From the NCBI GenBank assembly GCA_017628075.1, contig JAGBZV010000049.1, forward strand, positions 1-44,845: 44,845 nt of DNA, read 5' to 3'. Both the position numbers and the translations under genes were made by a program. This stretch comes from Clostridia bacterium. GTDB lineage: Bacteria > Bacillota > Clostridia > Oscillospirales > CAG-272. The notes beneath the pieces were generated by a model. The model saw nothing but the letters and a program-made list of their open reading frames with translations, was not told the DNA's origin and searched no databases. Positions 1 to 27,108 of the stretch are shown one piece after another. Positions within the stretch are counted from its first letter, which is position 1, and the number at the start of each line of letters is the position of its first letter.

Positions 1-790
<790 letters not shown>

Positions 791-817: not shown

Positions 818-829
818 CGTACGACTTAT

Positions 830-858
830 ATTGTACTCACTTTCATGGGAAAAATCAA
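830..858 (-). promoter_or_regulatory. Sigma-A type promoter of groES-groEL
   Basis: On the minus strand, TTGATT (-35, 858-853), a 17-nt spacer, then TACAAT (-10, 835-830), immediately upstream of CIRCE. Confidence 0.7.
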
Positions 859-993
859 GGGTTTTTCCGAGAATTAACATATTATTAACACATCATGGGA
901 CGATTGGAAATAATTGCGCAGGAAATCGGTGCCCGCGTGCAACATAGAACGCGCGGATGCCGCATACGATGGGGGCGTGAGGAGGCGTGAATC

Positions 994-2334: not shown

Positions 2335-2359
2335 CAGACGGCAGATTGTGTGGTATAAT
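2331..2359 (+). promoter_or_regulatory. Sigma-A promoter of the rpsF-ssb-rpsR operon
   Basis: TTGACA (2331-2336), a 17-nt spacer, then TGgTATAAT with TATAAT at 2354-2359 (extended -10). The -35 overlaps the stop codon of the symporter gene. Confidence 0.75.
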
Positions 2360-2445
2360 AACTAAGTCTGCGGCAGATGTCCGCAGCAATCCTTTCAAAA
2401 ACGAGGAACGTTTTTGACACAAGTCCATAAGGAGGTGCAATTTGC

Positions 2446-2739
2446 ATGGAAAAGAAGATCGGTTCCTACGAAACAATGTTTATCGTAAACCCCCAACTGT
2501 CCGAGGATGACACAAAGGCTGTCATCGAGAAGTTCACTGCGCTGATGGCAGAGAACGGCGAGATCGAGCAGATCAGTGAATGGGGCAAGCGCAGACTTGC
2601 TTACCCGATCAACGATCTGATGGAAGGCTATTATGTTCTTGTCAACCACAAGGCTGATACCCAGTTCATCCGTGAGCTGACTCGTCTGTTCAACATCAAC
2701 GAAAACGTCATGCGTGCCATGACCACTACCCGCGCTTAA
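2446..2739 (+). CDS. rpsF: 30S ribosomal protein S6
   Basis: The 97-aa ORF YETMFIVNPQLSEDDTKAVIEKFTALMAENGEIEQISEWGKRRLAYPI is typical S6. AAGGAGGTG RBS, and rpsF-ssb-rpsR synteny. Confidence 0.95.
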   Translation: MEKKIGSYETMFIVNPQLSEDDTKAVIEKFTALMAENGEIEQISEWGKRRLAYPINDLMEGYYVLVNHKADTQFIRELTRLFNINENVMRAMTTTRA

Positions 2740-2759
2740 TCTTAGCGAGGTGACGGAAT

Positions 2760-3239
2760 ATGGCAAGTCTGAACAAGGCGATTCTGATGGGCAACCTTGT
2801 CGCAGATCCGGAATTGAAGCAGACCCCCTCGGGTGTGTCTGTTTGCTCCTTCCGTATCGGCGTACAAAGACGCTTCAAGGACGCAAACGGCCAGTACGCA
2901 TCTGATTTTATCAACATCGTCGCATGGAGACAGCAGGCGGAATTCGTTTCCAAGTATTTCCGCAAGGGCAGCTCTGTCGTCGTTGTCGGTTCTATTCAGA
3001 CACGCGACTATACTGACCAGCAGGGAAACAAGCGCTATGCAACCGAGGTTGTTGCCGACGAGGTTTCGTTCGGCGCATCGAAGAACGATTCTTCGAATGC
3101 CGCTCCCGCATTTGCAGGTGCAGGTGATTTCGGAAACGCATCCGCATTCGGTCAGGGCGCACCCGTATCTGCTCCGGCAGCTCAGCCGGCAGCACCCAAG
3201 TTTGAGGAAATTGACGGAGATGAAGATCTCCCGTTCTGA
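2760..3239 (+). CDS. ssb: Single-stranded DNA-binding protein
   Basis: An OB-fold N-terminus (MASLNKAILMGNLVADPELKQTPSGVSVCSFRIGV), a Gly/Ala/Pro-rich linker and an acidic DEDLPF tail. Confidence 0.95.
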   Translation: MASLNKAILMGNLVADPELKQTPSGVSVCSFRIGVQRRFKDANGQYASDFINIVAWRQQAEFVSKYFRKGSSVVVVGSIQTRDYTDQQGNKRYATEVVADEVSFGASKNDSSNAAPAFAGAGDFGNASAFGQGAPVSAPAAQPAAPKFEEIDGDEDLPF

Positions 3240-3276
3240 TAACAGGTTATTTTATCAGGGAAAGGAATGAAAAACA

Positions 3277-3570
3277 TTGGATAACGCAAAGGAAGTCAAG
3301 ACCACTGAGGTCAAGGAACAGAGAGAACCCGCAGCAAAGCCTTACCGCGCACAGAACCGCGGCAAGAGAAGAAAGGTCTGCCAGTTCTGCGCAGAGAAGA
3401 TCGAGGCTGTAGATTACAAGGACGTCGGAAGACTGAGAAAGTATATCTCCGAGCGCGCAAAGATTCTTCCCAGAAGAATCACCGGTACCTGCGCTATACA
3501 CCAGAGACAGCTGACTGACGCGATCAAGCGTGCAAGAATCGTTGCTCTGCTGCCCTATATCAGCGATTGA
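3277..3570 (+). CDS. rpsR: 30S ribosomal protein S18
   Basis: [64 protein letters not shown] is typical S18. The only in-frame start is TTG at 3277, so the start is less certain than the product. Confidence 0.88.
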
Positions 3571-3587
3571 TCACAAGCAATATGATG

Positions 3588-3623
3588 GGTGCTGCACGGA
3601 TGTGCAGTACCTGTTTTTTTTTT
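3588..3623 (+). terminator. Rho-independent terminator of the rpsF-ssb-rpsR operon
   Basis: Stem GGTGCTGCAC / GTGCAGTACC (one mismatch), loop GGAT, followed by TG and a run of 10 T. Confidence 0.85.
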
Positions 3624-3717
3624 GCGCACGGAGGCATATGGCCGTACGGCGAACACGCCGGGGCGTGCTGTGTCAATTATTTGTATTTTCCGTGCGTTTT
3701 TTTGTCGAATTTAGCCA

Positions 3718-3746
3718 TTGAAAATATTTGTGTTTTGTGATATCAT
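3718..3746 (+). promoter_or_regulatory. Sigma-A promoter of the cation:proton antiporter gene
   Basis: TTGAAA (3718-3723), a 17-nt spacer, then TGaTATCAT (-10 at 3741-3746). Confidence 0.6.
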
Positions 3747-3823
3747 ATATTCGTTTGCTTTTGCGGAACAAGCTGTTTTTCAAACGCAAGCCCTACAACT
3801 ATCAGAATAGGAAGTATTTCGTT

Positions 3824-5119
3824 ATGACTGTCCTTCTTTCCATATCCATCGGCATGATCGCTGCGATGCTGCTGTCCCGTCTTGCCAAAAAGGTCCAGCT
3901 TCCGGCTGTTACTGCATATCTTGTTGCCGGTATTCTCGTCGGTCCGTTTTGCCTCGGTGCTCTCGGTATCGAAGGCCTTGGCTTCGTTGGCGAGGAGTCT
4001 ATATCCAACCTGAGCATTCTCTCTGACGTTGCCCTTGGCTTTATCGCCTTTTCAATCGGCAACGAGTTCCGCTTGGTACAGCTCAAAAAAACCGGCAGAC
4101 GGGCGACTGTGATCGGCATCTTTCAGGCTGTTGCAGCAACGCTGATCGTGGATGCCGCGCTTATTGCCCTGCATTTCATTATGCCCGATAAGATCGGACT
4201 TCCCGCTGCCATTACACTTGGAGCGATTGCTTCGGCAACGGCACCTGCCGCAACGCTGATGGTCGTTCGCCAATATAAGGCAAAGGGTGAGCTGACCGAT
4301 CTGCTTCTTCCCATCGTTGCGCTGGACGATGCCGTTGGCCTGATCCTGTTTGCAGTTTCATTCGGTGTTGCGCGTGCAATTCAAAGCGGTGCTATTGACG
4401 TCATTTACATTATCATCAATCCGCTCGTTGAGATCGCTGCGTCCCTGGTGCTTGGTTCCGTTATGGGCTTTATCATGGATTGGGTGGAGCAGTTCTTCCA
4501 TTCCAGATCCAAGCGTATGTCTATCTCCATTGCATTTGTTATGCTGACCGTTGCACTTTCCATGCTCAAGTTTGAGATTGGTCCCGTGCACGTCGGCTTC
4601 TCCTCGCTTCTCGTCTGTATGATGCTTGGCACGATCTTCTGCAACATCTGTGACTATTCCGAGGAGCTTATGGAGCGTGTTGACGGTTGGACGACACCCC
4701 TGTTCGTGATTTTCTTCATGCTCTCCGGTGCTGAGCTGGACCTTACCATTTTTTCCGATCTTGGAATCGTATTCATTGGCGTGCTGTTTTTGACGGCCCG
4801 TGCCGTGGGTAAGTGCGGCGGTGCGTACCTCAGCGCGAAATGGACGAACTGCCCGCCCAACGTCTGCAAGTACCTCGGTGTCACGCTCCTTCCGCAGGCC
4901 GGTGTTGCACTCGGTATGTCCCTGCAGGTCGCTCCGCTCGGTGCCGACGGCGTTCTGATCCGCAATATCGTTCTTTTCTCCGTCATGGTTCTTGAGCTCG
5001 TCGGACCGCTTATGGCAAAGGTTGCGCTTACGCGGGCAGGCGACATCGTTCCGGAGGGCCGTACCTCTGCAAGAGGCGTTGTCCCCTCCAAGCATAAGGG
5101 CGCACTTCCGAAGCAGTAA
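3824..5119 (+). CDS. Cation:proton antiporter (CPA2 / Na+/H+ exchanger family)
   Basis: A polytopic membrane protein starting MTVLLSISIGMIAAMLLSRLAKKVQLPAVTAYLVAGILVGPFCLG, the typical CPA N-terminus. I prefer the ATG at 3824 (AGGAAG RBS) over the ORF-track start at 3728. Confidence 0.8.
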   Translation: MTVLLSISIGMIAAMLLSRLAKKVQLPAVTAYLVAGILVGPFCLGALGIEGLGFVGEESISNLSILSDVALGFIAFSIGNEFRLVQLKKTGRRATVIGIFQAVAATLIVDAALIALHFIMPDKIGLPAAITLGAIASATAPAATLMVVRQYKAKGELTDLLLPIVALDDAVGLILFAVSFGVARAIQSGAIDVIYIIINPLVEIAASLVLGSVMGFIMDWVEQFFHSRSKRMSISIAFVMLTVALSMLKFEIGPVHVGFSSLLVCMMLGTIFCNICDYSEELMERVDGWTTPLFVIFFMLSGAELDLTIFSDLGIVFIGVLFLTARAVGKCGGAYLSAKWTNCPPNVCKYLGVTLLPQAGVALGMSLQVAPLGADGVLIRNIVLFSVMVLELVGPLMAKVALTRAGDIVPEGRTSARGVVPSKHKGALPKQ

Positions 5120-5140
5120 TTTCAGCGTATGAGCTTGATA

Positions 5141-5171
5141 GGAGCCGCACGGCCGTTTGGCCTGCGGCTCC
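5141..5171. terminator. Bidirectional hairpin terminator between convergent genes
   Basis: GGAGCCGCA...TGCGGCTCC stem with an inner GGCC/GGCC pairing, followed by CTTTTACT. It lies between the antiporter stop (5119) and the minus-strand gene stop (5175). Confidence 0.6.
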
Positions 5172-5174
5172 CTT

Positions 5175-6182
5175 TTACTGCGCTTTGGATATATAGAATG
5201 CCTGTGTATCCAGTATACGGAGCGCGCCGTCCGTGATGCGCAGACCAACGGTCACCGTTCCGCCCGGAACGGAAAACGAATAATACCGGATGCCGTGCTT
5301 CTCGGAAACGGAGGCCTCACCCGACACGGATACGCCTGCGTCGCCGAGCACATCTGCGGTAATCGTGTCAAGATCCTGCTCCGTGAGTGCGCGTGTCACG
5401 TATGCGGAGTCACTTTGTGCGGTACGTGGGAACAGGAGCAGTGTGAGAACGTGACCGCCGTGTACAGAAACACTTGCGTATCCGTTCCGACAGGAAAAAA
5501 GATATACGCCGCCGTCCTCATCCGTGTACGCATCCCCCAGCAGAGTGGCGGTCCGCCCAAGTACCCCCTTCAGACTGGCTCTCGCCTTTGCCGCCGTGAC
5601 GGGCGTTTCCTTGTCGTAGGTGTGTGTCGGTCGGGCACTGCCGTCAAGCAGGGCGGCGCGGACGGGGTCCGGTGCAAACGCATCGGCAAGCACCTCAAGC
5701 TCTGCTGCTGCCCGGAAATCGGGGAATTTGCTCTGCGGATCGGCATCGGAAATTGCACAGGCAAGATCTGCAATATGCATCCCCGCCTGTGCGACGCAGG
5801 CTTTCCAGAATACGGCGTCCGCGTCGGAAACGGTTTCTCCGATCTGCCGCGCCAATGCCGCGTAAAATACCGAGGCGGCGTCGGCGGTGCGCCGCAGGGC
5901 GTCAGCAGATGATACGTGTACGTGAGGACGCAGTGCGGCAAGCCGTGCGGCATCGGCGGACAGCATTTCGGTGCGGAAGCGGATCAGCGCGGCATCGCGC
6001 GTATCAAGGGCATCGTTAAGCGCTGCGGTATGCTCTGCCATTTCGGACAGAAGACATGCGCAGATGCGGTCAAGCGCCGCGTCGCGGGCGTTTGACGTCT
6101 TTTGCTGAACCCAAAGCGTGCCCAGCGCAAGCGTACACAGCGCCGCGGTCAGCGCGGCAAGTCGGATGGTTGTTCGTTTCAT
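5175..6182 (-). CDS. Membrane-anchored hypothetical protein, possibly YpeB/PepSY-like germination protein
   Basis: I prefer the internal start MKRTTIRLAALTAALCTLALGTLWV (ATG 6182-6180, preceded by GGAGGA), giving 336 aa. It has one N-terminal TM anchor, an Ala-rich helical region and a C-terminal beta-rich part resembling PepSY repeats. The family call is by pattern only. Confidence 0.55.
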   Translation of the reverse strand: MKRTTIRLAALTAALCTLALGTLWVQQKTSNARDAALDRICACLLSEMAEHTAALNDALDTRDAALIRFRTEMLSADAARLAALRPHVHVSSADALRRTADAASVFYAALARQIGETVSDADAVFWKACVAQAGMHIADLACAISDADPQSKFPDFRAAAELEVLADAFAPDPVRAALLDGSARPTHTYDKETPVTAAKARASLKGVLGRTATLLGDAYTDEDGGVYLFSCRNGYASVSVHGGHVLTLLLFPRTAQSDSAYVTRALTEQDLDTITADVLGDAGVSVSGEASVSEKHGIRYYSFSVPGGTVTVGLRITDGALRILDTQAFYISKAQ

Positions 6183-6305
6183 GTGGATCCTCCGCTTTTT
6201 TTGACAGTATGCGTGCTGATGCGGGCGGATATGCGTGCTTTGCGGCGTGTTTTTGTGGGGGATCCATGCCAAATTGTGAAATTTCTTGAAATCCTGCTTT
6301 GATGT

Positions 6306-6334
6306 TTGACAACGGCGAGAATGTATGGTATAAT
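6306..6334 (+). promoter_or_regulatory. Sigma-A promoter of holB-yaaT
   Basis: TTGACA (6306-6311), a 17-nt spacer, then TGgTATAAT (TATAAT 6329-6334). Confidence 0.75.
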
Positions 6335-6406
6335 AGTACGGGAATCGTTTTGCCGCTGTGTACGGCGGCAGAATAATTGGGATTTTCAAAAAAGAAGGTG
6401 AGGAGC

Positions 6407-7561
6407 ATGGCCCGGATTTCGCTCGAATGTCTGTATGGAAACGGTGTATTCAAGGAAACGCTCGTCCGTGCCATTACGGACGGCAGGCTTTCGCATGCGT
6501 ATTTGTTCGAGGGCGTGCAGGGCTCCGGCAAGGCAACCGCCGCGTTCCTTTCCGCCGCGACACTGTGCTGTACCTCGGAGGAGGTCCGACCGTGTATGCA
6601 GTGCCCAACGTGCAGAAAGATCCTCTCCGCGCAGTCACCGGATCTGTCAGTCATCGGACTTGACGCTTTGCCGTTTGACGGGCACGATCCCGCAAAGCCG
6701 ACCGAGAAGCCGCGCTCCATCGGCGTGGATGCCATTCGCGCACTCCGGTCGGATGCCTATATCCTTCCCAACGATCTGGAATACAAGCTATACATCATTG
6801 GCCATGCGGATCGCATGACCGTACAGGCGCAAAATGCGCTGCTGAAGATTTTGGAGGAGCCTCCGACCGGCGCGGTCTTCTTTTTGCTTTGCGAAAATCG
6901 CGCGGCGCTGCTTCCCACGGTGCTTTCCCGCGTTCAGCGGCTGAATATGGAGCAATTTTCCGACGATGCACTGTACGCGCTCCTTTGTCGGTACGATCGG
7001 GAGGCATCCATGCTTTCTGCGCGTGACGATGCGCTTCTGCGGCTGTATGTCCGTCTTGCGGACGGCGCATACGGACGGGCACTGTTTTATGTGCACGCAC
7101 AGAAAAAGGAGCTTGCCCAGGATGAAGCGTACGCTGCACATGAGGGGGCAATGCAGTGCCTCGCCTTGCTGTTTGCGGATTCCTATTCCGACGACAGCCC
7201 TGTTTTGCGCGGGGGTGAGGGTGTCCTTGAGCGCCCGTCGCTGACCTCTGTTGCGGCACGCATTACGTCCCTGCTTCCGGGAAAGGACGGCGCCGAAAAC
7301 CGATCGCGTCTGCGTGCGCTGACGGGTGCGCTGTGTGTGGCGGTACGGGATCTGACCATGTGTGCCTGTGGGGTGGAGGGACAGCTTTTGTTTTATCCTT
7401 CTCACGAGCAGCCCGCGGTGCTTGCTGCGCGATGCCGTGCAAAAACGCTGTCCGATACGGGGCGCGCGCTGTGTGTGCTCCTTGAAGATATGGATGCCAA
7501 TCCGAACGTCGGAATGCTTACGCGCTCCCTTGCCGGAGTGCTGATGGGCTTGCGCCGTTGA
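6407..7561 (+). CDS. holB: DNA polymerase III subunit delta prime
   Basis: LSHAYLFEGVQGSGKATAA (AAA+ clamp-loader P-loop variant) followed by the Cys cluster CMQCPTCRKILSAQSPDL. ATG at 6407 follows GGTGAGGAG. holB-yaaT synteny as in Bacillus. Confidence 0.85.
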   Translation: MARISLECLYGNGVFKETLVRAITDGRLSHAYLFEGVQGSGKATAAFLSAATLCCTSEEVRPCMQCPTCRKILSAQSPDLSVIGLDALPFDGHDPAKPTEKPRSIGVDAIRALRSDAYILPNDLEYKLYIIGHADRMTVQAQNALLKILEEPPTGAVFFLLCENRAALLPTVLSRVQRLNMEQFSDDALYALLCRYDREASMLSARDDALLRLYVRLADGAYGRALFYVHAQKKELAQDEAYAAHEGAMQCLALLFADSYSDDSPVLRGGEGVLERPSLTSVAARITSLLPGKDGAENRSRLRALTGALCVAVRDLTMCACGVEGQLLFYPSHEQPAVLAARCRAKTLSDTGRALCVLLEDMDANPNVGMLTRSLAGVLMGLRR

Positions 7562-7608
7562 ATGAATGAACTCAGGAAAGGAGATCCCGCTGGGATCGAT
7601 AGAATATT

Positions 7609-9009
7609 ATGGCTGAAAATGAAATGATGACCGCCCCGGAAGCACGGGGTACGGCAAAGGATGAGAGCGGGCAGAAGTCCCGCGGACGAAATCGCCGCGG
7701 CGGCCGCGGACGCGGACACGACCGCAGAAATGCGGACGGAAATAGCCGCGGTGCATCCCATACGCCCGCAGAGGGGACGGCAGAGCCTCAAAACGCAGAG
7801 GGTGTGCGGGAATCTGCAGGCGGAGCTGAGGCTCGCTCGCAGGGCGGAGAGTCTGCACAGAAGCGCGGCCGCGGACGGCGCGGCGGACGCGGACGCAGAG
7901 GTCACGGCGCAGAAAACGGCAGAGCGGCTGCGGGAGAGAATCCCGCGGAGCTGACGGCTTCTGCCGGGGCTGAGGAGCTCGTCTATACGCTGACGGAGCG
8001 CGATGAGATCGCGGCAGAGGTTCACGAGATCATTACCGAGGAGCGGCTTGCCGCCATTGCGGAGGAGATCGCCTCTGAGCGCGAGATGCAGCAGGCGTGC
8101 GAGGCAGAGGCGGATGCGGGGGAGACTCCTGCAAAAACGCCGGTGGAGATCGTCGGCGTTCGTTTCAAGCCGGCAGGAAAGGTCTATTATTTCGATCCGG
8201 CAGGTGCTGTGTACAAGGAAGACGATGAGGTTATCGTTGAAACGGCACGCGGCATGGAATTCGGATTCGTCGTAGGCGGAAACCGTACGGTTATGGCAAG
8301 CGACATCGTTGCCCCGCTGAAGCGGATTCTGCGGATGGCAGACGAGCAGGACCGCGTGCATTACGAGGAGAATAACCGCCGCAGGGAAGAAGCGTTTGCT
8401 ATCTGCCGGGAGAAGATCCTGCAGCACGGCATTGAAATGAAGCTGATCGACGTGGAGTATACCTTCGATAATAACAAACTCCTGTTTTATTTTACTGCCG
8501 ACGGACGCGTGGATTTCCGTGAGCTGGTCAAGGATCTGGCATCGGTCTTCCGTACGCGTATTGAGCTGCGGCAGATCGGTATTCGCGACGAGGCGAAGCT
8601 GATGGGCGGACTTGGTGTCTGCGGACGCCCGTTCTGCTGCCACTCGTTCCTCTCCGACTTCGTTCAGGTTTCCATCAAGATGGCAAAGGAGCAGAATCTT
8701 TCGCTGAACTCTGCAAAGATCTCCGGCACCTGCGGAAGACTGATGTGCTGTCTGCGGTATGAGTACGACGTGTACGAGGAGGAGATCCGCAAGACACCGA
8801 AGATGGATGCCGTTGTGGCAACGCCGGACGGTGAGGCGGTCGTTTGTGAGGTGATTCCGCTTGCCGGACTTGTCCGGGTTAAGTTTATCGGAAACCGTGC
8901 CGACCTGCCTCCGAAGCTGTTCCACCGCGACGACGTTACTGTGCGCGGAAAGATGAACTGGAAATCCGGAGCCGTGACCTATCTTGAGGATAAGCGGGAG
9001 CAGAAATAA
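7609..9009 (+). CDS. yaaT: PSP1 domain protein / stage 0 sporulation protein YaaT (RicT) with a long Arg/Gly-rich N-terminal extension
   Basis: From about 8143 on: VEIVGVRFKPAGKVYYFDPAG...ARGMEFG...LLFYFTADGRVDFRELVKDL...GVCGRPFCCHSFL...GTCGRLMCCLRYE is the PSP1/YaaT pattern. The first ~178 aa are low complexity. Confidence 0.85.
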   Translation: MAENEMMTAPEARGTAKDESGQKSRGRNRRGGRGRGHDRRNADGNSRGASHTPAEGTAEPQNAEGVRESAGGAEARSQGGESAQKRGRGRRGGRGRRGHGAENGRAAAGENPAELTASAGAEELVYTLTERDEIAAEVHEIITEERLAAIAEEIASEREMQQACEAEADAGETPAKTPVEIVGVRFKPAGKVYYFDPAGAVYKEDDEVIVETARGMEFGFVVGGNRTVMASDIVAPLKRILRMADEQDRVHYEENNRRREEAFAICREKILQHGIEMKLIDVEYTFDNNKLLFYFTADGRVDFRELVKDLASVFRTRIELRQIGIRDEAKLMGGLGVCGRPFCCHSFLSDFVQVSIKMAKEQNLSLNSAKISGTCGRLMCCLRYEYDVYEEEIRKTPKMDAVVATPDGEAVVCEVIPLAGLVRVKFIGNRADLPPKLFHRDDVTVRGKMNWKSGAVTYLEDKREQK

Positions 9010-9052
9010 CCGGACGTATAATCCGTTTTGACTAGCATAAAAAGATAACTCC

Positions 9053-9216
9053 GAGGTGCTGCAAGCTCTTGCAACACCTCCCAGGAAGTTTCCCATGCCC
9101 CTCAGCTGAGGGGCATTTTCATGCGAAAATCGCTTGAAAAATCGGGAAATTCGGGCACTTTGTTCTCCCGGGCTGCCGCAAGCTTTCAACTTGCAGCAGC
9201 CCCGAATTTATTTTCT
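9053..9216 (+). repeat. Copy A of a ~160-bp modular hairpin-rich intergenic repeat (family also at 17713-17874 and 21254-21414)
   Basis: Direct alignment by eye: roughly 85-90% identity to copy C and about 80% to copy B across the core GAAGTTTCCC.TGCCCCTCAG..GAGGGGCATTTTCATGCGAAAATCGCTTGAAAA.TCGGGAAATTCGG plus the terminal hairpin GGGCTGCCGCAAG-CTTTCAA-CTTGCAGCAGCCC. Confidence 0.9.
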
Positions 9217-9235
9217 GCAAAAAGGAAAAAGAGGC

Positions 9236-9580
9236 TTACTGCGGCTGTGCGGGAGGATGCAGAACGATCATATCAATGCGCCCGCGTACGCGAAGACAGC
9301 CGTTCTGCACCACGTAGAGGCGCAGATCCCTTCCGCTGATGCGGAGCAGCGTAAAGCCGCATCGGTCGGGATCCTTCATCCGGAACAGAAGACAGTTCTC
9401 TTCGTAGGATAACAGCGTTTCGTAGCCCGTAATCGTCAGGGAGGCATCTCCCTGCAGCTCCATATACGGAACGCCGGAAAGCGCTCCCTCCGGGAATGAA
9501 AGTGCGTGCATGATCCTGCCGCGCAGCGTGCAGGCAACTCCGTTTTCTCCGGAGCGGGCTCTTTTTTTTCGTTCAGCCAT
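9236..9580 (-). CDS. YabP/YqfC family sporulation protein
   Basis: 114 aa from the ATG at 9580-9578 (GGGAGG RBS). ELQGDASLTITGYETLLSYEENCLLFRM...LRISGRDLRLYVVQNGCLRVRGRIDMIVL matches the YabP/YqfC beta-rich pattern. The longer 202-aa track ORF has no supported N-terminus. Confidence 0.7.
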   Translation of the reverse strand: MAERKKRARSGENGVACTLRGRIMHALSFPEGALSGVPYMELQGDASLTITGYETLLSYEENCLLFRMKDPDRCGFTLLRISGRDLRLYVVQNGCLRVRGRIDMIVLHPPAQPQ

Positions 9581-9644
9581 AAAAACGACCTCCCGTGCAT
9601 AGTATTTGACGTCAGTATATGAGAGGGGAGGAGGAAATACAACT

Positions 9645-10598
9645 GTGAGAGGTCGGATGCTTGGCGCGTCTGCACGGTACCGGGGAGGGCTTTCTCTGTA
9701 CGGGGGCGGATTATGTGCGGCGGCGCTGCTTTGTGCCGCGCTTTTGCTGTGGGATCCTGCGGTTGGTGCGGAGGGCGTCCGCATGGGGCTTTCCTTGTGT
9801 GCCGGTGCACTGATACCTGCGCTGTTTCCGTTTTTATGTATCACCCCGTTTTTATCCTACGTTACGGCACGAGCCGTCGGTGCGCGGACACTTGGCCGAT
9901 GGGGACGGCTTTTGTCCGTTTTCCTTATCGGAATGGTTGCAGGATTTCCCGTTGGCGCGATTGGGGCGGCAAGGCAGTATCGCTCGGGACTTCTTGAGAA
10001 GGAGGAGGCGGAGTGCTGTCTTGGACTTTGCGTCGGAGCATCGCCGGCGTTTCTCGTCGGGTATTTCGGAAATGCGCGGTGGGGAGATGTGCGCCTCGGC
10101 TGGTGGCGGTATGCGGCACAGGGTCTTCTGTGCGGTGCGGCGATGGCGGTGGTCTGTATGCACGGCAAGGTGCGCGGCGAGGCGTGGGGGAGCGGTGATG
10201 CTTTGACGACTCCGCCCCGCATTGCCGTGTGCATTGCGGATGCGGCGGAAGCGATGCTCGGTATTTGTGCGTCTGCGGTTTTTTTTACGGTGCTGAGAGG
10301 CTATTTGCACGGTCTGTTTCCTCCGCTTGGAGCACTTTTGCTTGGAGGCGCTGCGGAGCTTCTTGGCGGAATCTGTGAATGCAGGGCGGCTTTGGATACC
10401 GGACTTCTTGGAAGCGGTGCGGCGGTGTGCCTCAGCGCATTTATGATCGGCCTTGGAGGGGCTTCGGTCATGATGCAATGTGCTGCGGCCGCCGAGGAGG
10501 CGGGGCTTTCCATGCGTCGGTACGTGCAAATGCGGATCCTGTTGGCGCTCGGGCTTGCGGGTGCAGCCGCCGTTTTCTGTTGGATATGGGGGAGATAG
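9645..10598 (+). CDS. Integral membrane protein, YlbJ-like (nucleoside-recognition/Gate domain) sporulation membrane protein
   Basis: Polytopic, with GVRMGLSLCAGALIPALFPFLCI near the N-terminus as in YlbJ-type proteins. The GTG at 9645 lies after GGAGGAGG; an ATG at 9657 is an alternative. The family call is moderate. Confidence 0.5.
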   Translation: MRGRMLGASARYRGGLSLYGGGLCAAALLCAALLLWDPAVGAEGVRMGLSLCAGALIPALFPFLCITPFLSYVTARAVGARTLGRWGRLLSVFLIGMVAGFPVGAIGAARQYRSGLLEKEEAECCLGLCVGASPAFLVGYFGNARWGDVRLGWWRYAAQGLLCGAAMAVVCMHGKVRGEAWGSGDALTTPPRIAVCIADAAEAMLGICASAVFFTVLRGYLHGLFPPLGALLLGGAAELLGGICECRAALDTGLLGSGAAVCLSAFMIGLGGASVMMQCAAAAEEAGLSMRRYVQMRILLALGLAGAAAVFCWIWGR

Positions 10599-10601
10599 CG
10601 T

Positions 10602-11924
10602 ATGTATTGGCTTGAATTTTTCGGTGGAACGGAAACTGCGGTCGTTGAGGCCGGAATGAGGCGCACTTATACGTCACTTCTGCTTCGGTGTGGGATCCGT
10701 GCCCTCGGGATCCGGAATCTGCCCGACGGGAGGATCGAGTTCTGCTTGCGGCGGCGCGATATGCGTGCGCTGGAGCAAGTGGCGCTCGCGCGCGGACTTG
10801 TACCGCCGCAGCCGGAGATGTGCAGAGGCTTCCCGCGCGTGCTTGCGTTTCTGCGAAGGCGGCCGGGGGTGCTCGTGGGGGCGGCTCTTGCGGCAGGACT
10901 GATTGCGGCATCGTCCTTATTTGTGTGGCGGGTGGATATCGTTTGTCTGGATAACGCGCAGGGGGCGGCGGAGCGCGATCGGCTGGATCTCGATGAAGTG
11001 CGCCGCGTGCTGTCTGAGGGCGGGGTGGACGTTGGCTTGTTTTTGCCCTCGCTTGACGTGCGGGACGTGGAAAACAGGATCCTTGCAGGACAGAAGGAGA
11101 TCAGCTGGATGGCCATCAACCGGAGCGGAACGGTGCTGTCCGTGGAGGTGCGTCCCGCACACGTGCCGGACGTCGACCGGACGGAGGCTCTGCGTCCCGA
11201 GGAGGGGTATGCCGTCGGAACGAATCTCGTTGCAGACGGCGACGGACGGATCCTTTCGTTTTCCGTGCAGGGTGGGCAGACGGTGGTCAGCGCGGAGCAG
11301 ATGGTAACGGAGGGTACGCTTTTGGCGACGGGGATGTATACCTCGGAAACGGGAGATATTGTCGGAATGCGTGTGCACGGAGAGGTGCTTGCGGAAACGG
11401 TGAGAACGCTTTGTGCAGAGATCCCGCTTGTCAGAAGCAGCGCCATTCCCGTTGATGTGACACGCAGGGAATGGACGCTGGTGGCGTTTGGGAAACCGCT
11501 TCTCCACATCTCGTGGCCGCTTTTTGACGTTGGAGAAATCGTAACTTTTTTGCAAACTTTTCGTTTTTGGGATAAAAATGCTGGAATTTCCGGTGAGAAA
11601 TATGGTATAATAACAGATGAGACGATTTTGCAGGATCCGCCGAAGGCGATAACGCTTTGGGACGGTGTGCCGCTTCCGCTCGTGCTGCAAAGCGCCACGG
11701 TCCTCCAATGCACGGAGGAGCGTTACGTGCTGACGGAGGAGGAAGCCGCCGCTTGTGCGAAAAAGGTGCTGGATGGCGCAATGGCGGCGCTCGGTGCAAG
11801 GGAAATCCTTTCCTGCGAGGAATCGTTTTCATATCGGGATGACACCTTGTATGCGGTACGGTACGTATACTGCATTGATAACATTGCACGCGAGGAGGAG
11901 TTCCGCATCAAAACAGATCCGTAG
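10602..11924 (+). CDS. yqfD: Sporulation protein YqfD
   Basis: 440 aa, with an N-terminal soluble part, one TM helix (VLVGAALAAGLIAASSLFVW) near residue 90, then a long C-terminal domain. It lies immediately upstream of phoH-ybeY-era-recO, as in the Bacillus yqf operon. Confidence 0.7.
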   Translation: MYWLEFFGGTETAVVEAGMRRTYTSLLLRCGIRALGIRNLPDGRIEFCLRRRDMRALEQVALARGLVPPQPEMCRGFPRVLAFLRRRPGVLVGAALAAGLIAASSLFVWRVDIVCLDNAQGAAERDRLDLDEVRRVLSEGGVDVGLFLPSLDVRDVENRILAGQKEISWMAINRSGTVLSVEVRPAHVPDVDRTEALRPEEGYAVGTNLVADGDGRILSFSVQGGQTVVSAEQMVTEGTLLATGMYTSETGDIVGMRVHGEVLAETVRTLCAEIPLVRSSAIPVDVTRREWTLVAFGKPLLHISWPLFDVGEIVTFLQTFRFWDKNAGISGEKYGIITDETILQDPPKAITLWDGVPLPLVLQSATVLQCTEERYVLTEEEAAACAKKVLDGAMAALGAREILSCEESFSYRDDTLYAVRYVYCIDNIAREEEFRIKTDP

Positions 11925-11947
11925 GGTGAAAGGACGGCACCGCGCCG

Positions 11948-13003
11948 ATGCGCGCTGCACGAAATACTATGACAGAAACGACCATTTTGACCGATACGCT
12001 GGAGCAGACATCCGTTCTGTTCGGTGCGTACGATGCCAATATCAAGCCGCTTGAGCGCGCACTCGGCGTTACGGTGCTTGCCAAGGATACAATGAGCGCC
12101 GGAGGAAATGCCGTCGTGGTGCGCGGGGAGGATGACCAGGCTGTTCGCTTGGCCGCGGAGTGCCTTGAGTACGCACTGCGCATGGTTAAGCTCAACGGCG
12201 CGCTGACGGAGCAAAACATGGATTACGTAATCTCCATGGTGACAGCGGGGAAAAAGGAGGAGCTTGGTGCACTGGACGGCGACTGCATCTGCATTACGAC
12301 GCGCGGCAAGCCCATCAAGGCAAAGACCGTCGGACAGAAGCACTACGTCGATGCCATCCGAAAAAACACCGTCGTCCTCGGCCTTGGTCCGGCGGGAACC
12401 GGAAAAACGTTTCTTGCCGTAGCCATGGCGGTCAAGGCGCTGCGCGCAAAGGAGACCTCCCGCATCATTCTGACTCGACCTGCGGTGGAGGCGGGAGAGA
12501 GGCTGGGCTTTCTGCCGGGTGACCTGCAGACGAAGATCGATCCGTATTTGCGGCCGCTCTACGATGCGCTATACGAAATGCTCGGTCCGGAGACCTATCA
12601 GAAGCATCTTGAGCGCGGAACCATTGAGATTGCGCCGCTTGCCTATATGAGAGGAAGAACGCTGGACGATTCGTTTATTATCCTCGATGAAGCACAGAAC
12701 ACAAAGCCTGAGCAGATGAAAATGTTTCTGACGCGCCTTGGCTTCAATTCCAAGGCTGTCGTTACGGGTGATATCACACAGACGGACCTGCCTTCCGGAC
12801 AGAAATCCGGTCTTGCGGAGGCGGCCCGCGTGCTGGAGGGCATTGAGGATATTGCCATTCATCAATTTACGGAGAGAGACGTCGTGCGCCACAAGCTGGT
12901 GCAGCAGATCATTCTCGCCTATGAGAAATACGACAAGGAAAAGACAAAGCGGAGCAGCGGTGCACCCACAGAGGAGAAGCGCTACCGCTTTGACCGCAGA
13001 TAA
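11948..13003 (+). CDS. phoH: PhoH family ATPase (PhoH/YbeZ)
   Basis: [18 protein letters not shown] Walker A, and [35 protein letters not shown], the PhoH signature. An alternative start is at 11969. Confidence 0.92.
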
Positions 13004-13017
13004 AGGGAGAGACGAAT

Positions 13018-13515
13018 ATGAAGCATACCGTCTATACACGCAACGATCAGAAAAAAGAGCCGCTGACGCCTGCGGCGCGTGCGCTTGTGCGCCGTGCCGT
13101 TGCAGCTGCGCTGGAGCACGAGCACTTTTCCCGTGCGGCAGAGGTTTCGGTCACCTTCGTGGACGACGAGGCGATCCGGGAGCTCAACCGCGATTATCGG
13201 GGCAAGGATACCCCCACCGACGTGCTGTCGTTCCCACTCTATGAGGAGGAGGCGCTTGATGCGCTGATGCCCGTATCCCCGGACGACCGGGGGGCAGATA
13301 TCCCGGAGGCGATCGGCGATATCGTGATCTCCGTTGAGCGCGCACGCGCACAGGCGCAGACGTTTGGTCACTCCTTTGAGCGGGAGCTGGCATTCCTTGC
13401 GGTCCATTCCACCCTGCATCTGCTCGGCTATGACCACGAGCGCTCTCCCGAGGAGGATGCCGATCAAAGACGGCGCCAGGAGGAGATACTTTCCTCCATC
13501 GGTCAGAAGCGCTGA
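13018..13515 (+). CDS. ybeY: rRNA maturation endoribonuclease YbeY
   Basis: DVLSFPL and the zinc motif [12 protein letters not shown]. Confidence 0.93.
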
Positions 13516-13546
13516 TATCCCAACATAAAAAACAACGTAAACAGAA

Positions 13547-14446
13547 ATGGAAATCACTATGAAGAAAACAGGCTTTATTGCCATTGTAGGCAAACCGAAC
13601 GTCGGAAAATCCACCCTTCTCAATACGATGCTTGGCGAAAAGATCGCCATCGTGTCGGACAAGCCGCAGACCACACGCAACCGCGTGACGGGTATTCTGA
13701 CACGGGACGATACGCAGTACGTCTTTATGGATACCCCCGGTATGCACAACCCCAAGAACAAGCTCGGCGACTTTATGATGCGTGCCGCAAACGATACCTT
13801 GACGGACGTGGACGCCGTTTTGTACGTCGTTGAGGCAGATAAGCATATCAGCCCTGCGGAGGAGCAGCTGATGGACAAGCTGTCCCGCGGCTCCATTCCC
13901 GCAATTCTCGTCATCAACAAGATCGACGCAGCAAACGGAGAGAAGGTCGGTCAGACCATTCAGCGCTTCTCTCAGCGCCACAACTTCCATGCCGTGATCC
14001 CGGTGTCTGCACTGAAGGACAAGGGCATTGAGATTATCTTCGATGAGCTGCAGCCGTTTATGAACGAATGTGAGGACTGGTTTTTCCCGGATGATATCAT
14101 CACCGACCAGCCCGAGCGTCAGATCGCAGCCGAGGTTATCCGCGAGAAGATCCTGCGCCTGACCAACGACGAGATCCCGCACGGCACGGCCGTTGTGATC
14201 GAGGCGTTTGAGGAAGGACGCGATCTGATCTCCATCCGTGCTGAAATCTTCTGCGAGCGCGAGTCGCATAAGGGCATCCTCATTGGAAAGCATGGGGTGA
14301 CGCTGAAGAAGATCGGCACATATGCAAGAGAGGATCTTGAGGCGTTTTTGGGCGTTAAGGTCTATTTGAACCTGTGGGTCAAGGTCAAGGAAAATTGGCG
14401 TGACAGTGCCGCACAGGTCGCCAACTTCGGCTTTATTGATGAATAA
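13547..14446 (+). CDS. era: GTPase Era
   Basis: GFIAIVGKPNVGKSTLLN (G1), DTPG (G3), NKID (G4) and a C-terminal KH domain region. A possible alternative start is ATG 13559. Confidence 0.95.
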   Translation: MEITMKKTGFIAIVGKPNVGKSTLLNTMLGEKIAIVSDKPQTTRNRVTGILTRDDTQYVFMDTPGMHNPKNKLGDFMMRAANDTLTDVDAVLYVVEADKHISPAEEQLMDKLSRGSIPAILVINKIDAANGEKVGQTIQRFSQRHNFHAVIPVSALKDKGIEIIFDELQPFMNECEDWFFPDDIITDQPERQIAAEVIREKILRLTNDEIPHGTAVVIEAFEEGRDLISIRAEIFCERESHKGILIGKHGVTLKKIGTYAREDLEAFLGVKVYLNLWVKVKENWRDSAAQVANFGFIDE

Positions 14447-15284
14447 GACACAGCCGGTATTGAATACGCGCGGTGTCGTTTTGCGCACGACGGACGTAGG
14501 GGAGCGGGACCGTATGCTCACGGTGCTGACCGCTGAGCACGGAAAGATTTCCGTCTTTGCGCGCGGTGTCCGCAAGATTACCTCCGGAGCACTGCCTGCA
14601 TGCCAGCTCTTTGCCTATGCGGATTTTACGCTGCGGCGCGCCTCACAGTACTGCTTTCTCAACGAAGCGACGATCAGGGAAACCTTTCTTGGAATATCCT
14701 CGACCATTGAGGGGGCGGCGCTTGCCTCCTACCTTTGTGAGGCGGCGGATGAGCTGACCTATGAGGGCGGCGATTCCGCACAGATGCTTCAGCTTCTGCT
14801 CAATACGCTGTGGACCATCTCCGCAGGCACACGCCCGCTGTTTTTGGTCAAGGGCGCATTTGAGCTGCGAGCAGCGGCCATTTCCGGATATCAGCCGGAT
14901 CTTGGCGGCTGTGCCGCGTGCGGATGTGAGACCGATCCGGCGGGGGACCGCTTTCTGCTTGACGTGATGAACGGACGGCTGATTTGCGGCGAATGCTACG
15001 ATACGCTGTATCGGGTGCACTTGGATATCGCGGCGGCGCACTTGCCGCCTAATGTGCCTTTGTGCGATGAGCACGGACAGCAGATCCTGTTCCGCCGTCT
15101 GAATACGTCTGCCCTGCGCGCAATGCAGTACGTGCTGTATACCGATCCGAAGCGGCAGTTTTCGTTTTCCGTGGAGGGGGAGGGGATCCTTTTGTTCCGC
15201 GATGCGTGCGAAACGTACCTCCTGCACCATGTCGGCCACGGCTATAAAACGCTGTCGTTTTACAAATCTCTGGAAACTTTGTAA
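14439..15284 (+). CDS. recO: DNA repair protein RecO
   Basis: NTRGVVLRTTDVGERDRMLTVLTAEHGKISVFARGVRK is the RecO OB-fold N-terminus, with a Cys cluster CAACG...CGEC. The ATG at 14439 overlaps the era stop by 8 nt; I prefer this start over the track start at 14400. Confidence 0.88.
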   Translation: MNKTQPVLNTRGVVLRTTDVGERDRMLTVLTAEHGKISVFARGVRKITSGALPACQLFAYADFTLRRASQYCFLNEATIRETFLGISSTIEGAALASYLCEAADELTYEGGDSAQMLQLLLNTLWTISAGTRPLFLVKGAFELRAAAISGYQPDLGGCAACGCETDPAGDRFLLDVMNGRLICGECYDTLYRVHLDIAAAHLPPNVPLCDEHGQQILFRRLNTSALRAMQYVLYTDPKRQFSFSVEGEGILLFRDACETYLLHHVGHGYKTLSFYKSLETL

Positions 15285-15308
15285 CCGAAAATTAAAAGGA
15301 ATATCACC

Positions 15309-17708
15309 ATGGCAACTTTTGAAAAAGCAATCGGAACGCTGGAATTTGACCGCGTTCTGGAGCAGCTTGCGGCCGCTGCGCAGACCGAGGGCGCAAAGGA
15401 GCGGGCAATGCGCGTTATACCGCAGACCTCTCTTTCGCGCATTCGCAGGCTGCAGGGGCAGACCTCCGATGCCCGGAAACTGATGGGCGTGAAGGGTACA
15501 CCGCCCTTCGGCGGAGTGACCGACATCACCGGTCACATCGACCGTGCCGAAAAGGGTGCTCCCCTGTCACCCGCAGAGCTTTTACGTGTGGCAAACGTTC
15601 TGCGTACGGCACGGATGCTGAACGATTATATCAATACGGACAAGCGCTTTGAAACCTCGCTTGACGAGATCTTTGACAGACTCACGCCGAATCGCTATCT
15701 GGAGGATCGAATCACGAAATCCATCCTTGCGGAGGATCTGATCGCGGACGAGGCGAGTCCCGCGCTTGCGGAGATCCGCCGGAAGATCCGTTCCGCCAAC
15801 GGCAGAATCAAGGAATCTCTGCAGAGGTACACGTCCGGTCAGAATTACTCCAAATATCTGCAGGAGAATATCGTCACGCAGAGAAACGGCCGCTACGTCG
15901 TTCCCGTCAAGGCGGAATACCGCAATGAGATCAAGGGCCTCGTGCACGACACCTCTGCCTCGGGAGCAACGCTGTTTATCGAGCCGCTGTCTGTTGTGGA
16001 AGCGAACAACGAGCTGCGTTTTCTTTACAACCAGGAAAAGAAGGAAATTGAGCGCGTGCTGGAGGAGCTGTCGCAGGCCGTTGCTGACTGCGCGTCCGCA
16101 CTCTCCCTGAACTATCACAATATAACGGAGCTTGCGTTTGTATTTGCAAAGGCAGAGCTCTCCTTTCGGATGAACGCCGCAGAGCCGCAGCTGAACGAGG
16201 ATGGCATCATCGATCTCAAGCGCGCCCGCCATCCGCTTCTCGATGCAAAAACCGTTGTTCCCATCGATATCCGATTGGGTGGCGATTTTGATACGCTCGT
16301 CATCACCGGTCCCAATACCGGCGGTAAGACGGTATCTCTGAAAACGCTCGGTCTGTTTGCGCTGATGGCGCAGTCCGGTCTTCATATTCCGGTTTCCGGC
16401 GAATCCCGGATTTGCGTGTTTGACAAGATCTTTGCCGATATTGGCGACGAGCAGTCCATCGAGCAGTCGCTGTCAACGTTTTCCGCACACATGACCAATA
16501 TCGTGTCTATTCTGGCGGAGATCACGCCGGATTCGCTCGTGCTCTTTGATGAGCTTGGTGCCGGTACGGACCCGGTCGAGGGTGCGGCGCTGGCGGTTTC
16601 CGTGCTGGAGCACGTGCGTGCGGTCGGCGCACGCTGTGCTGCAACGACGCACTATGCGGAGCTGAAGGCATTTGCACTTGATACCCCCGGTGTGTGCAAC
16701 GCATCGTGTGAATTCGATATCGGAACGCTCCGTCCAACGTACCGTCTGATCATCGGTACGCCCGGCAAGTCCAATGCGTTTGCAATTTCTGCAAAGCTCG
16801 GCTTGCCCGAGGAGATCATTGCGCGTGCCAATGCGCTGGTGTCACAGGAAAACAAGCGCTTTGAAACGGTCATTGAGCAGCTTGAGGTCAACCGCATCGA
16901 AATGGAGCGCAACGCCGATGAAACGGCCCGTATGCGCCGCGAATACGAGCAGATGCGTGCACAGGCCGATGCTGAGATCAAAAAGAACCGCGAAAATGCG
17001 GAGCGGGAGCTGGAGCGCGCGCGCGCGCAGGCTGCCAATATCGTTGCATCCGCAAAGGCGTCCTCGGAATATATTTTTGCGCAGATTGAGGAGCTCAAGC
17101 GCAAGAAGGAGAGCGAGAATCTTGCGCGGGAGCTGGACGAAGCACGGCGGCGCATCCGTGTCAATCTGAAGGAATCCGATGCGTTTATTGATCCCATCGT
17201 TAAGCGGGATGCGGAGGGCTACCGTCTTCCCAGACCGCTGAAGGTCGGTGATTCTGTAATTTTGGTCAATCTTGATATGCAGGGAAAGGTGACGGCACTT
17301 GCTGACCGCGACGGTATGATTGCAGTACAGGCAGGCGTCATCAAGACCAAGGTCCGTGAATCCGAGCTGATGCTCGTGGACGGAAAGCAGGTGCAGATCA
17401 AGGAAAATCCCCGCACGCCGAAAATGGCAACGCAGAAATCCGTGCGTGCCGCAGTGGTGCGCGAATTCCGTCCGGAGCTGGATCTTCGCGGTGAATATAC
17501 CGACGACGCCTGGCTGAAAACGGACAAATATCTGGACGATGCCGCACTTGCAGGCATCAAATCCGTGACGCTCATTCACGGAAAGGGCACGGGCGCCCTT
17601 CGTAAGGTCCTGTGGGAAAAGCTCAAAAAGGATGCGCGCGTGCGATCCTATCGCGCCGGTGCATACGGCGAGGGCGATTACGGCGTTACCGTCGTGGATC
17701 TGAAATAA
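15309..17708 (+). CDS. mutS2: Endonuclease MutS2 (MutS domain V ATPase plus C-terminal Smr domain)
   Basis: 799 aa, with ITGPNTGGKTVSLKTLGL Walker A, DELGAGTDP, a Glu/Arg-rich coiled coil and a C-terminal Smr domain (LDLRGEY...IHGKGTGALR). Confidence 0.95.
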   Translation: MATFEKAIGTLEFDRVLEQLAAAAQTEGAKERAMRVIPQTSLSRIRRLQGQTSDARKLMGVKGTPPFGGVTDITGHIDRAEKGAPLSPAELLRVANVLRTARMLNDYINTDKRFETSLDEIFDRLTPNRYLEDRITKSILAEDLIADEASPALAEIRRKIRSANGRIKESLQRYTSGQNYSKYLQENIVTQRNGRYVVPVKAEYRNEIKGLVHDTSASGATLFIEPLSVVEANNELRFLYNQEKKEIERVLEELSQAVADCASALSLNYHNITELAFVFAKAELSFRMNAAEPQLNEDGIIDLKRARHPLLDAKTVVPIDIRLGGDFDTLVITGPNTGGKTVSLKTLGLFALMAQSGLHIPVSGESRICVFDKIFADIGDEQSIEQSLSTFSAHMTNIVSILAEITPDSLVLFDELGAGTDPVEGAALAVSVLEHVRAVGARCAATTHYAELKAFALDTPGVCNASCEFDIGTLRPTYRLIIGTPGKSNAFAISAKLGLPEEIIARANALVSQENKRFETVIEQLEVNRIEMERNADETARMRREYEQMRAQADAEIKKNRENAERELERARAQAANIVASAKASSEYIFAQIEELKRKKESENLARELDEARRRIRVNLKESDAFIDPIVKRDAEGYRLPRPLKVGDSVILVNLDMQGKVTALADRDGMIAVQAGVIKTKVRESELMLVDGKQVQIKENPRTPKMATQKSVRAAVVREFRPELDLRGEYTDDAWLKTDKYLDDAALAGIKSVTLIHGKGTGALRKVLWEKLKKDARVRSYRAGAYGEGDYGVTVVDLK

Positions 17709-17712
17709 AGCG

Positions 17713-17874
17713 CCTCGGGCTGTTGCACTTACGTGCCCAAGCCCCATAGAAGTTTCCCTTGCCCCTCAGTGAAGGTGCAGTTTCATGCGAAAATCGTTTG
17801 AAAACCGGGGAATTCGGGTCCCTTTGTGACCCGGGGTTGTTGCAAGCTTTCAACTTGCAACAACCCCTTTTTTT
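17713..17874 (+). repeat. Copy B of the ~160-bp modular repeat; it ends in a strong intrinsic terminator
   Basis: It shares the core GAAGTTTCCCTTGCCCCTCAG...TTTCATGCGAAAATCGTTTGAAAACCGGGGAATTCGGG. The terminal hairpin GGGGTTGTTGCAAG-CTTTCAA-CTTGCAACAACCCC is perfect and followed by T7. It starts 5 nt after the mutS2 stop. Confidence 0.9.
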
Positions 17875-18799: not shown

Positions 18800-18809
18800 G
18801 GACTGACAC

Positions 18810-21234: not shown

Positions 21235-21253
21235 TCGAAATGAAAAAAACAAA

Positions 21254-21414
21254 GGGAGGTGTTGCAAGTTATTGCAACACCTCCCCGGAAATTTCCCTTG
21301 CCCCTCAGCCGAGGGGCATTTTCATGCGAAAATCGCTTGAAAATCGGGAAATTCGGTTCACTTTGCGCCCTCGGGCTGCCGCAGGTTTTCAGCTTGCGGC
21401 AGCCCCTTTGTATT
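21254..21414 (+). repeat. Copy C of the ~160-bp modular repeat, filling the convergent intergenic region
   Basis: GGAGGTGTTGCAA-GTTA-TTGCAACACCTCC, GGAAATTTCCC, TGCCCCTC-AGCC-GAGGGGCA, then the TTTTCATGCGAAAATCGCTTGAAAATCGGGAAATTCGG core, then a GGGCTGCCGCA...TGCGGCAGCCC hairpin followed by CTTTGTATT. Confidence 0.9.
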
Positions 21415-27094: not shown

Positions 27095-27108
27095 TATACA
27101 ATCAAGGG

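Follow-up and report, generated by a model that had tools for sequence, protein, structure and literature searches.

A hairpin-rich repeat at gene ends in a Clostridia bacterium: a putative terminator or mRNA 3'-end module

Three copies of a hairpin-rich intergenic repeat of about 160 bp, designated A, B and C, were found in a 44,845-nt stretch of Clostridia bacterium DNA (contig JAGBZV010000049.1 of assembly GCA_017628075.1), which was analysed whole and is called the window below. We read the repeat as a lineage-restricted, non-coding structured element, putatively a terminator or 3'-untranslated region (3'-UTR) module that would protect mRNA ends and would act in both directions at convergent sites; in our estimate this reading has about an even chance of being right. 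It is drawn from the outward-facing, terminator-like ends of the element, the apparent replacement of the mutS2 terminator by one copy, the lack of a promoter or open reading frame (ORF), the absence of the element from sister species and its near-neutral drift among strains.

A first-pass annotation, made from the letters of the window, had described three segments lying in the same orientation and aligning over their whole length, and the sequences and the alignment agreed with this. The three copies were located as follows:

Copy A, whole element: 9053..9216, + strand; sequence, alignment, nhmmer, covariance model (167.2 bits)
Copy B, whole element: 17713..17874, + strand; sequence, alignment, nhmmer, covariance model (166.1 bits)
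Copy C, whole element: 21254..21414, + strand; sequence, alignment, nhmmer, covariance model (174 bits)

A repeat search returned them as one family (starts 9053, 17717 and 21256), in which B and C were 74% and 84% identical to copy A in gapless pairwise comparison; mean column identity in the trimmed three-copy alignment was 86%, and B was the most diverged copy. The element had a GC content of 52-55%, and all three copies lay within 12.4 kb of each other. When the window was searched with an nhmmer profile built from the copies, the + strand sites were exactly A, B and C (E 1e-58 to 1e-60), and the only other significant matches were the self-complementary hairpins on the - strand. The covariance model gave nothing comparable elsewhere in the window. 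The three-copy repeat is beyond chance, and the agreement of four independent assemblies excludes an artefact of assembly. In total about 52 kb of the species genome was examined, namely the window and 7.2 kb of contig to its left, and no fourth copy was present in either part. A genome-wide family, which had been deduced earlier from the three copies, was thus not confirmed, as searches outside the species were negative as well.

Each part of the five-part architecture proposed in the first-pass annotation was present: a left hairpin (H1), the GGAAGTTTCCC near-palindrome, a central palindrome (H2), a core and a right hairpin (H3). The hairpins of the three copies were:

A-H1: 9053..9080, no strand assigned; hairpin GAGGTGCTGCAAG-CT-CTTGCAACACCTC; helix 1, three pairs changed on both sides
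A-H2: 9095..9116, + strand; palindrome ATGCCCCTCAG/CTGAGGGGCAT, then TTTTCAT; helix 3
A core: 9117..9139, no strand assigned; hairpin/palindrome TTTCAtGCGA-AAA-TCGCtTGAAA; helix 4, 100% paired
A-H3: 9170..9202, + strand; hairpin GGGCTGCCGCAAG-CTTTCAA-CTTGCAGCAGCCC; helix 6, three pairs changed on both sides
B-H1: 17717..17744, no strand assigned; GGGCTGTTGCAC-TTAC-GTGCCCAAGCCC, a degenerate H1 with three internal mismatches
B core: 17781..17803, no strand assigned; hairpin TTTCATGCGAAAATCGTTTGAAA, one C>T change
B-H3: 17833..17874, + strand; 14-pair hairpin plus T7, the top-ranked terminator-like site of window 1-20000
C-H1: 21253..21286, - strand; 15-pair hairpin, then TTGTTTTTTT on the - strand, terminator-like for - strand transcripts
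C-H2: 21299..21318, + strand; TGCCCCTCAGCCGAGGGGCA plus TTTTCATG, terminator-like on the + strand
C core: 21320..21342, no strand assigned; hairpin TTTCATGCGAAAATCGCTTGAAA, from the alignment
C-H3: 21373..21405, + strand; 15-pair hairpin plus CTTTGTATTC, terminator-like on the + strand

The consensus fold of the three copies (RNAalifold) was the same on both strands. It comprised, in order, H1, a three-way junction, a weak small hairpin with an invariant CUUUG in its loop, and H3; the junction consisted of P1 (AGUUUCCC with GGGAAAUU), H2 and the 9-pair core hairpin UUUCAuGCGA-aaa-UCGCuUGAAA. Measured against shuffled sequences, copy A folded with -74.4 kcal/mol on the + strand (z -7.0) and -87.2 kcal/mol on the - strand (z -9.2). 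Base pairing was intact in 92.7% of the cells of the named structure compared to 38-53% in slid-partner controls, and 8 pairs were altered on both sides (3 in H1 and 3 in H3) compared to 0-2 in the slid controls. The covariation score was 0.212 versus 0.126 in shuffles and was reached by 0 of 500 shuffles, although the power of these statistics is low because they come from three sequences only. The hairpins are kept by compensatory substitutions.

The end hairpins of the element face outward. On the + strand a T-tract comes after H3, and the A-tract before H1 is a T-tract when the - strand is read, so that H3 reads as a terminator for + strand RNA and H1 as one for - strand RNA. In copy A these tracts are the T-rich tail at 9203-9216 and the A-rich tract at 9039-9050, which makes A-H1 terminator-like for - strand transcripts. 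A terminator scan was passed on the + strand by B-H3 (14 pairs plus T7), C-H3 (15 pairs) and C-H2, and on the - strand by C-H1 (15 pairs plus a T-run). These four hairpins were among only five with at least 13 pairs in 40 kb.

No sigma-70-like promoter was detected inside any of the three copies by a promoter scan, and a sigma-70 promoter belonging to the element was rejected on this result; as far as could be judged by eye, the element held no convincing sigma-54 or sporulation-sigma consensus site either. Among A, B and C no ORF was conserved. The only frame open in all three had no start codon, and the peptide opened by the invariant ATG at 9121 was 14 aa long in B but exceeded 50 aa in both A and C. 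Six-frame translations of the three copies gave no match to 5.8 billion protein clusters. With no conserved ORF and no protein match, a coding element, a small protein or a type I toxin gene was rejected. An integron attC site, a template of a diversity-generating retroelement, a parS site and a type I toxin-antitoxin system were also dropped, given the housekeeping context and the lack of an integrase, a reverse transcriptase or a conserved ORF.

Known families were searched as well. None of the Rfam 15 families matched at gathering thresholds in the whole window, and in E-value mode the best match of each copy scored 11-25 bits compared to gathering scores of 42-100, the matches being generic hairpins (miRNA precursors, DsrA, STnc100). 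A known RNA family was rejected because Rfam matches were absent at gathering scores and were noise in E-value mode. The Rfam comparison had been suggested in the first-pass annotation, and the view expressed there that no simple protein, promoter or Rfam model accounts for the element held, with the ORF, promoter, protein and Rfam searches all empty. The core pattern CATGCGAAAATCGNTTGAAA(A) gave 4 chance matches, to the motif only, in 185,579 GTDB species genomes, a collection whose cover of this species is uncertain, and 11 chance matches of the same kind in the JGI metagenomes, which evidently lack this species. In IMG/VR there were no matches to the core pattern and no viral matches to the H3 pattern, and a second motif matched 23 viral contigs, all of them one phage locus with a chance 18-mer. 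BLAST against plasmid and phage collections found nothing. A widespread family was rejected on these results, and no description of this repeat family was found in the literature.

All three copies are situated at gene ends. Copy A lies between the convergent genes ricT/yaaT (RicT/YaaT, PSP1; + strand, stop 9009) and a YabP/YqfC-like gene (- strand, ending at 9236), 19 nt from the end of the latter. Copy B lies between mutS2 (+ strand, stop 17708) and a + strand AP_endonuc_2 / FGGY sugar operon whose own promoter, TTTTCA-17-TATAAT, is located at 17906-17934 and thus downstream of the copy. Copy C lies between a convergent FGGY kinase (+ strand, stop 21234) and a DUF8091 gene (- strand, ending at 21418), only 3 nt from the end of the latter. 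Between stop codon and element there are 43 (A), 4 (B) and 19 nt (C), within 1 nt of the 44, 5 and 20 nt given earlier. The rule that the repeat always lies 3' of a plus-strand gene is correct for all three copies, but it is not exclusive: as A and C are each followed by a convergent gene, the association with gene ends holds equally for - strand genes at these two sites. The neighbouring genes ricT, mutS2 and the sugar kinase have no shared function.

To the right of copy C (window 21418-27700) the gene order was unlike that in the relatives L021, L022 and L035. In the window, DUF8091 and ispD (-) come after the FGGY kinase, and ispF and a pantothenate kinase lie on the + strand downstream of an FtsX/ABC pair; in these relatives, ECF, PanK and IspF (-) come after the FGGY kinase. 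Copy C thus lies at a synteny breakpoint.

The nearest relatives by MutS2 identity were L017 (89%), L021 (85%), L035 (84%) and L022/L023 (83%), all with similar gene order around mutS2 and recorded as uncultured Oscillospiraceae/Clostridia bacteria. When the syntenic 22-kb loci of these four related genomes were searched with nhmmer and the covariance model, the element was absent. Only hairpin-level matches were obtained, so copies in the relatives were rejected, and the same loci contained no analogous repeat family of the relatives' own. In L017 the spacer from mutS2 to AP_endonuc_2 carries a short ordinary terminator, GCCGA..TCGGCTTTTT, at the place of copy B, and homology to the window picks up again at the promoter downstream of copy B. 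Copy B appears, from this comparison, to replace the ordinary mutS2 terminator found in L017, which would then represent the ancestral state. The spacers of the relatives were too diverged to display a clean empty site.

The only trace of the element in a relative was a solitary hairpin in L022/L023 (2603-2638), located between convergent genes near PSP1, which agrees with the reverse complement of A-H3 in 29 of 32 positions, one pair being compensated. It is the second of two CTGCCGC/GCGGCAG-type hairpins in an intergenic region between convergent genes (2528-2641), with no core between them.

Four strains of the same species, 99.7-100% identical, were compared. The window was 99.72% identical (BLAST) to contig JAZRUT010000055.1 of a sister strain (GCA_045652685.1), and 99.86% identical to contigs of the ENA assemblies ERZ28653756 and ERZ27256955; a Logan contig of SRR12529138 showed no difference from it over 2,004 nt. 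Wherever the contigs cover them, A, B and C were at the same sites. Copy B was identical in all strains, whereas A had two single-nucleotide polymorphisms (SNPs) in one strain, and C differed by one SNP in one of the strains and by four in a second. SNP density was about 0.56% in the elements versus about 0.18% in the flanks, both from small numbers, and the density in the elements is roughly that of unconstrained non-coding DNA. One contig of ERZ27256955 (L032) ended inside copy C (window 21356, profile position 116). Of the 13 positions at which it differs from the window, 4 fall in its last 103 nt; variation among strains, conversion between copies or a break of the assembly at the repeat could account for this.

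We propose that the element is a cassette of about 160-165 bp in which two outward-facing, intrinsic-terminator-like hairpins surround a conserved centre, H1 serving as the terminator for - strand RNA and H3 for + strand RNA. As no promoter lies inside it, the element would form the 3' end of the upstream gene's transcript and, at the two convergent sites A and C, would be read from the opposing gene as well. In the cell it would end the transcript and leave the mRNA with a stable, structured 3' terminus. The cassette may have entered or spread in the ancestor of the species when the whole unit was duplicated, transposed or recombined, and it has been fixed at these three sites ever since. Of the three explanations offered in the first-pass annotation, a REP/BOX-like stabilising or terminator module fits best, while a classical MITE (miniature inverted-repeat transposable element) is weakened and a small RNA (sRNA) is less supported.

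Several observations weigh against a terminator or 3'-end module. There is no mobility signature, that is, no target-site duplication (TSD), no empty site and no presence/absence polymorphism among the four strains. The status of an interspersed repeat rests on a small sample of three known copies, all inside 12.4 kb. In copy A both H2 and H3 fail the strict 5-of-8 T criterion. The best-conserved part is the internal 23-nt hairpin together with TTTCCC-TGCCCCTCAG, not the terminator hairpins, and this internal peak points to a sequence-specific function outside the terminator model. A bare terminator requires about 40 nt, not 160, so the model does not explain the need for 160 bp or the central conservation.

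The first-pass annotation had named target-site duplications and empty sites in sister strains as marks of mobility. Reading of the flanks of A, B and C revealed no flanking direct repeat at any of the three copies, and the four strains were all occupied where covered. At copy B, conserved mutS2 sequence extends to the TAA stop on the left side, and on the right side the L017 homology is rejoined without duplication. A classical MITE is weakened because there is no TSD and no polymorphism among the four strains, and because the termini are the least conserved and the internal hairpin the most conserved part. The terminal inverted repeats suspected earlier in H1 and H3 have arms agreeing at 11 of 13 positions (5' arm of H1 versus the reverse complement of H3), but each hairpin is itself palindromic, so that direct and inverted similarity are not distinguishable.

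The lack of a TSD is expected for a doublet of repetitive extragenic palindromes (REPs), as in a bacterial interspersed mosaic element (BIME), or for an IS200/IS605-type palindrome-associated element, which would be mobilised by a Y1 transposase (RAYT/TnpA) located elsewhere and recognising H1 and H3. The two end hairpins are indeed related, GC-rich, imperfect palindromes and all copies have one orientation; the near-identical solitary H3-like hairpin of L022/L023, in opposite orientation, the GGTGCTGCA arm in the rpsR terminator (3584-3615) and a distinct REP-like pair with GTAG heads at the window's right edge point the same way. However, H1 and H3 (palindromes of 28-35 nt) have no GTAG head, and H1, which should be among the best conserved parts if it were recognised, is the least conserved (54-57% identity in B). 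No Y1 transposase was found among the genes of the 52 kb, no insertion polymorphism was found among the four strains, and three known copies compare with more than 100 per genome for typical REPs (PMC2817692). We regard this origin as improbable.

Conservation within the element was uneven. In the core hairpin, the most conserved block, 22 of 23 columns were invariant, and in the 5' arm of P1 7 of 8 columns were; the C-rich left arm of H2, TGCCCCTCAG, was invariant across A, B and C while its partner arm had about 4 changes in copy B. The centre is therefore more constrained than the termini. This pattern would favour paralogous structured RNAs or a family of 3'-UTR-derived or read-through sRNAs, an explanation that we consider unlikely. 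Its functional surfaces would be the invariant C-rich UUUCCC-UGCCCCUC and the core hairpin, for example as an anti-Shine-Dalgarno seed or a protein-binding hairpin. The position of the conservation peaks inside the element and not at its ends, the invariant H2 arm, the covarying stems, the very low folding z-scores and the tandem + strand terminator-like hairpins H2 and H3 are all consistent with an sRNA.

On the other hand, no promoter was found in the copies, no Rfam family matched, and none of the related species had the element conserved, an unusual distribution for a class of functional RNAs. Wobble pairs showed no strand bias, the number of pairs that are G-U only on the + strand being similar to that only on the - strand, and the consensus energies were -71.9 (+) and -73.0 (-) kcal/mol. 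Between strains, SNPs accumulated faster in the element than in the flanks, and some of them break P1 pairs.

A doubtful variant of this explanation, with a rather small probability, is an undescribed 3'-UTR RNA module in which a leaky H2 plus U4 would be followed by H3 plus a U-tract as second terminator, and the invariant segment between and around them would be released as an sRNA. The released segment would carry the UUUCAUGCGAAAAUCGCUUGAAA hairpin, the C-rich UUUCCC/GCCCCUC motifs and the invariant CUUUG; it might act in trans or be bound by a dedicated protein, and the copies might then form a species-specific paralogous sRNA family derived from a mobile terminator cassette. A precedent is given by the sRNAs rrA, rrB and rrF, which lie between the dual terminators of E. 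coli rrn operons (PMC8144298); here H2 plus U4 and H3 plus its U-tract bracket an invariant segment of about 55 nt. The E. coli sRNAs differ in belonging to rRNA operons of Gammaproteobacteria, an unrelated context, and in the present element the roles of first terminator and sRNA are only predicted.

Wobbles without strand preference would also suit a function of double-stranded DNA. The element could be a protein-binding module whose palindromes TTTCAnGCGA-AAA-TCGCnTGAAA (23 bp) and GGAAATTTCC serve as dimer operators; the most conserved blocks are dyad-symmetric and of operator size, and an analogy is found in E. coli, where the linker of some BIMEs carries a site for integration host factor (IHF). 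However, all of these blocks are downstream of genes, and those of A and C are flanked by convergent genes, where there is no promoter to control. The neighbouring genes are functionally unrelated (ricT, mutS2, sugar kinase), and the compensatory changes in H1 and H3 are left unexplained. We consider such an operator quite improbable.

As a terminator or 3'-end module, the element resembles several known repeats. The family is new to Rfam, although its kind, small structured species-restricted intergenic repeats at gene ends, is well known. REPs and BIMEs consist of GC-rich imperfect palindromes in pairs with a conserved linker, located at gene ends or between convergent genes and without TSD, and the element described here is alike in these respects. 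It differs in having no GTAG on H1 or H3 and a linker of about 90 nt, its best-conserved part, in place of a short one, and no RAYT was seen in about 52 kb.

SPRITE, BOX and bcr1 are likewise species-restricted, shorter than 200 bp, structured and co-transcribed with their neighbours (PMC3049150, PMC3184786). SPRITE of S. pneumoniae is a small, low-copy (30 per genome), species-restricted intergenic element that combines a long hairpin with a U-rich tract; neither a TSD nor an empty site could be established for it, and it is thought to be a terminator when co-transcribed (PMC3049150). Compared by description only, SPRITE is a single AT-rich hairpin, whereas the present element is GC-rich (52-55%) with two end hairpins and a three-way-junction centre. 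BOX (boxA-boxB-boxC, S. pneumoniae) is also modular, canonically below 200 bp, intergenic, co-transcribed, extensively folded as RNA and confined to one species and its closest relative (PMC3049150). In contrast to BOX, which has terminal inverted repeats, TSDs, variable module numbers and 125 copies per genome, the order of modules here is fixed, TSDs are lacking and three copies are known. The bcr1 element of the Bacillus cereus group (about 155 bp) is alike in size, in its occurrence in Firmicutes and in the compensatory changes that keep its multi-hairpin structure; it is transcribed, and its distribution is not conserved between related strains (PMC3184786). It differs in its 5-bp flanking direct repeats and its strain-dependent position; here there are no such repeats, and the sites are the same in four strains.

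If the element is a terminator or 3'-end module, it adds one more small structured intergenic repeat family, in a poorly studied uncultured Oscillospiraceae/Clostridia lineage, and would exemplify a repeat that provides housekeeping genes, among them ricT, mutS2 and a sugar kinase, with preformed terminators that may work in both directions. Its practical value lies in annotation, as such repeats break metagenome assemblies and can pass for sRNAs or riboswitches. It opens no long-standing question, and its interest would rise only if the invariant core were a trans-acting RNA or a specific protein-binding site.

Some further features of the window and of the strain contigs were noted. The rpsR terminator at 3584-3615, GGGTGCTGCAC-GGAT-GTGCAGTACCT plus T8, is strong, has the GGTGCTGCA arm in common with A-H1 and was matched weakly by the H1 portion of the nhmmer profile (E about 1). 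Directly after a Polysacc_synt/MATE-like gene (stop 44815) there are two REP-like units 53 nt apart, beginning in window 44816-44845 and extending into L027 8903-8985; each consists of CGTAGGG and then a GC-rich hairpin (GTAGGGCGGGGGCTTGCTCCCGCC, and GTAGGGGCGACCATTGGTCGCCC plus T5). This GTAG-headed pair, placed at 44817, may be a second repeat family in the genome. Two independent ENA assemblies end 21 and 83 nt past the stop at 44815.

Two observations concern a YlbJ-like sporulation membrane gene. In ERZ28653756 (L031 4337-5290, window 9645-10598) this 317-aa gene was called as 180 + 131 aa, which suggests a nonsense or frameshift variant. Contig L034 of ERZ27256955 follows the window to 10424, but its last 138 nt (5900-6037) match window 10132-10269 instead; the switch, inside the YlbJ-like gene, is an assembly chimera or a rearrangement. 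Finally, 14 of the 19 differences between the window and contig L028 of ERZ28653756 lie inside 100 nt (window 39818-39918), a cluster that looks like a short recombination tract.

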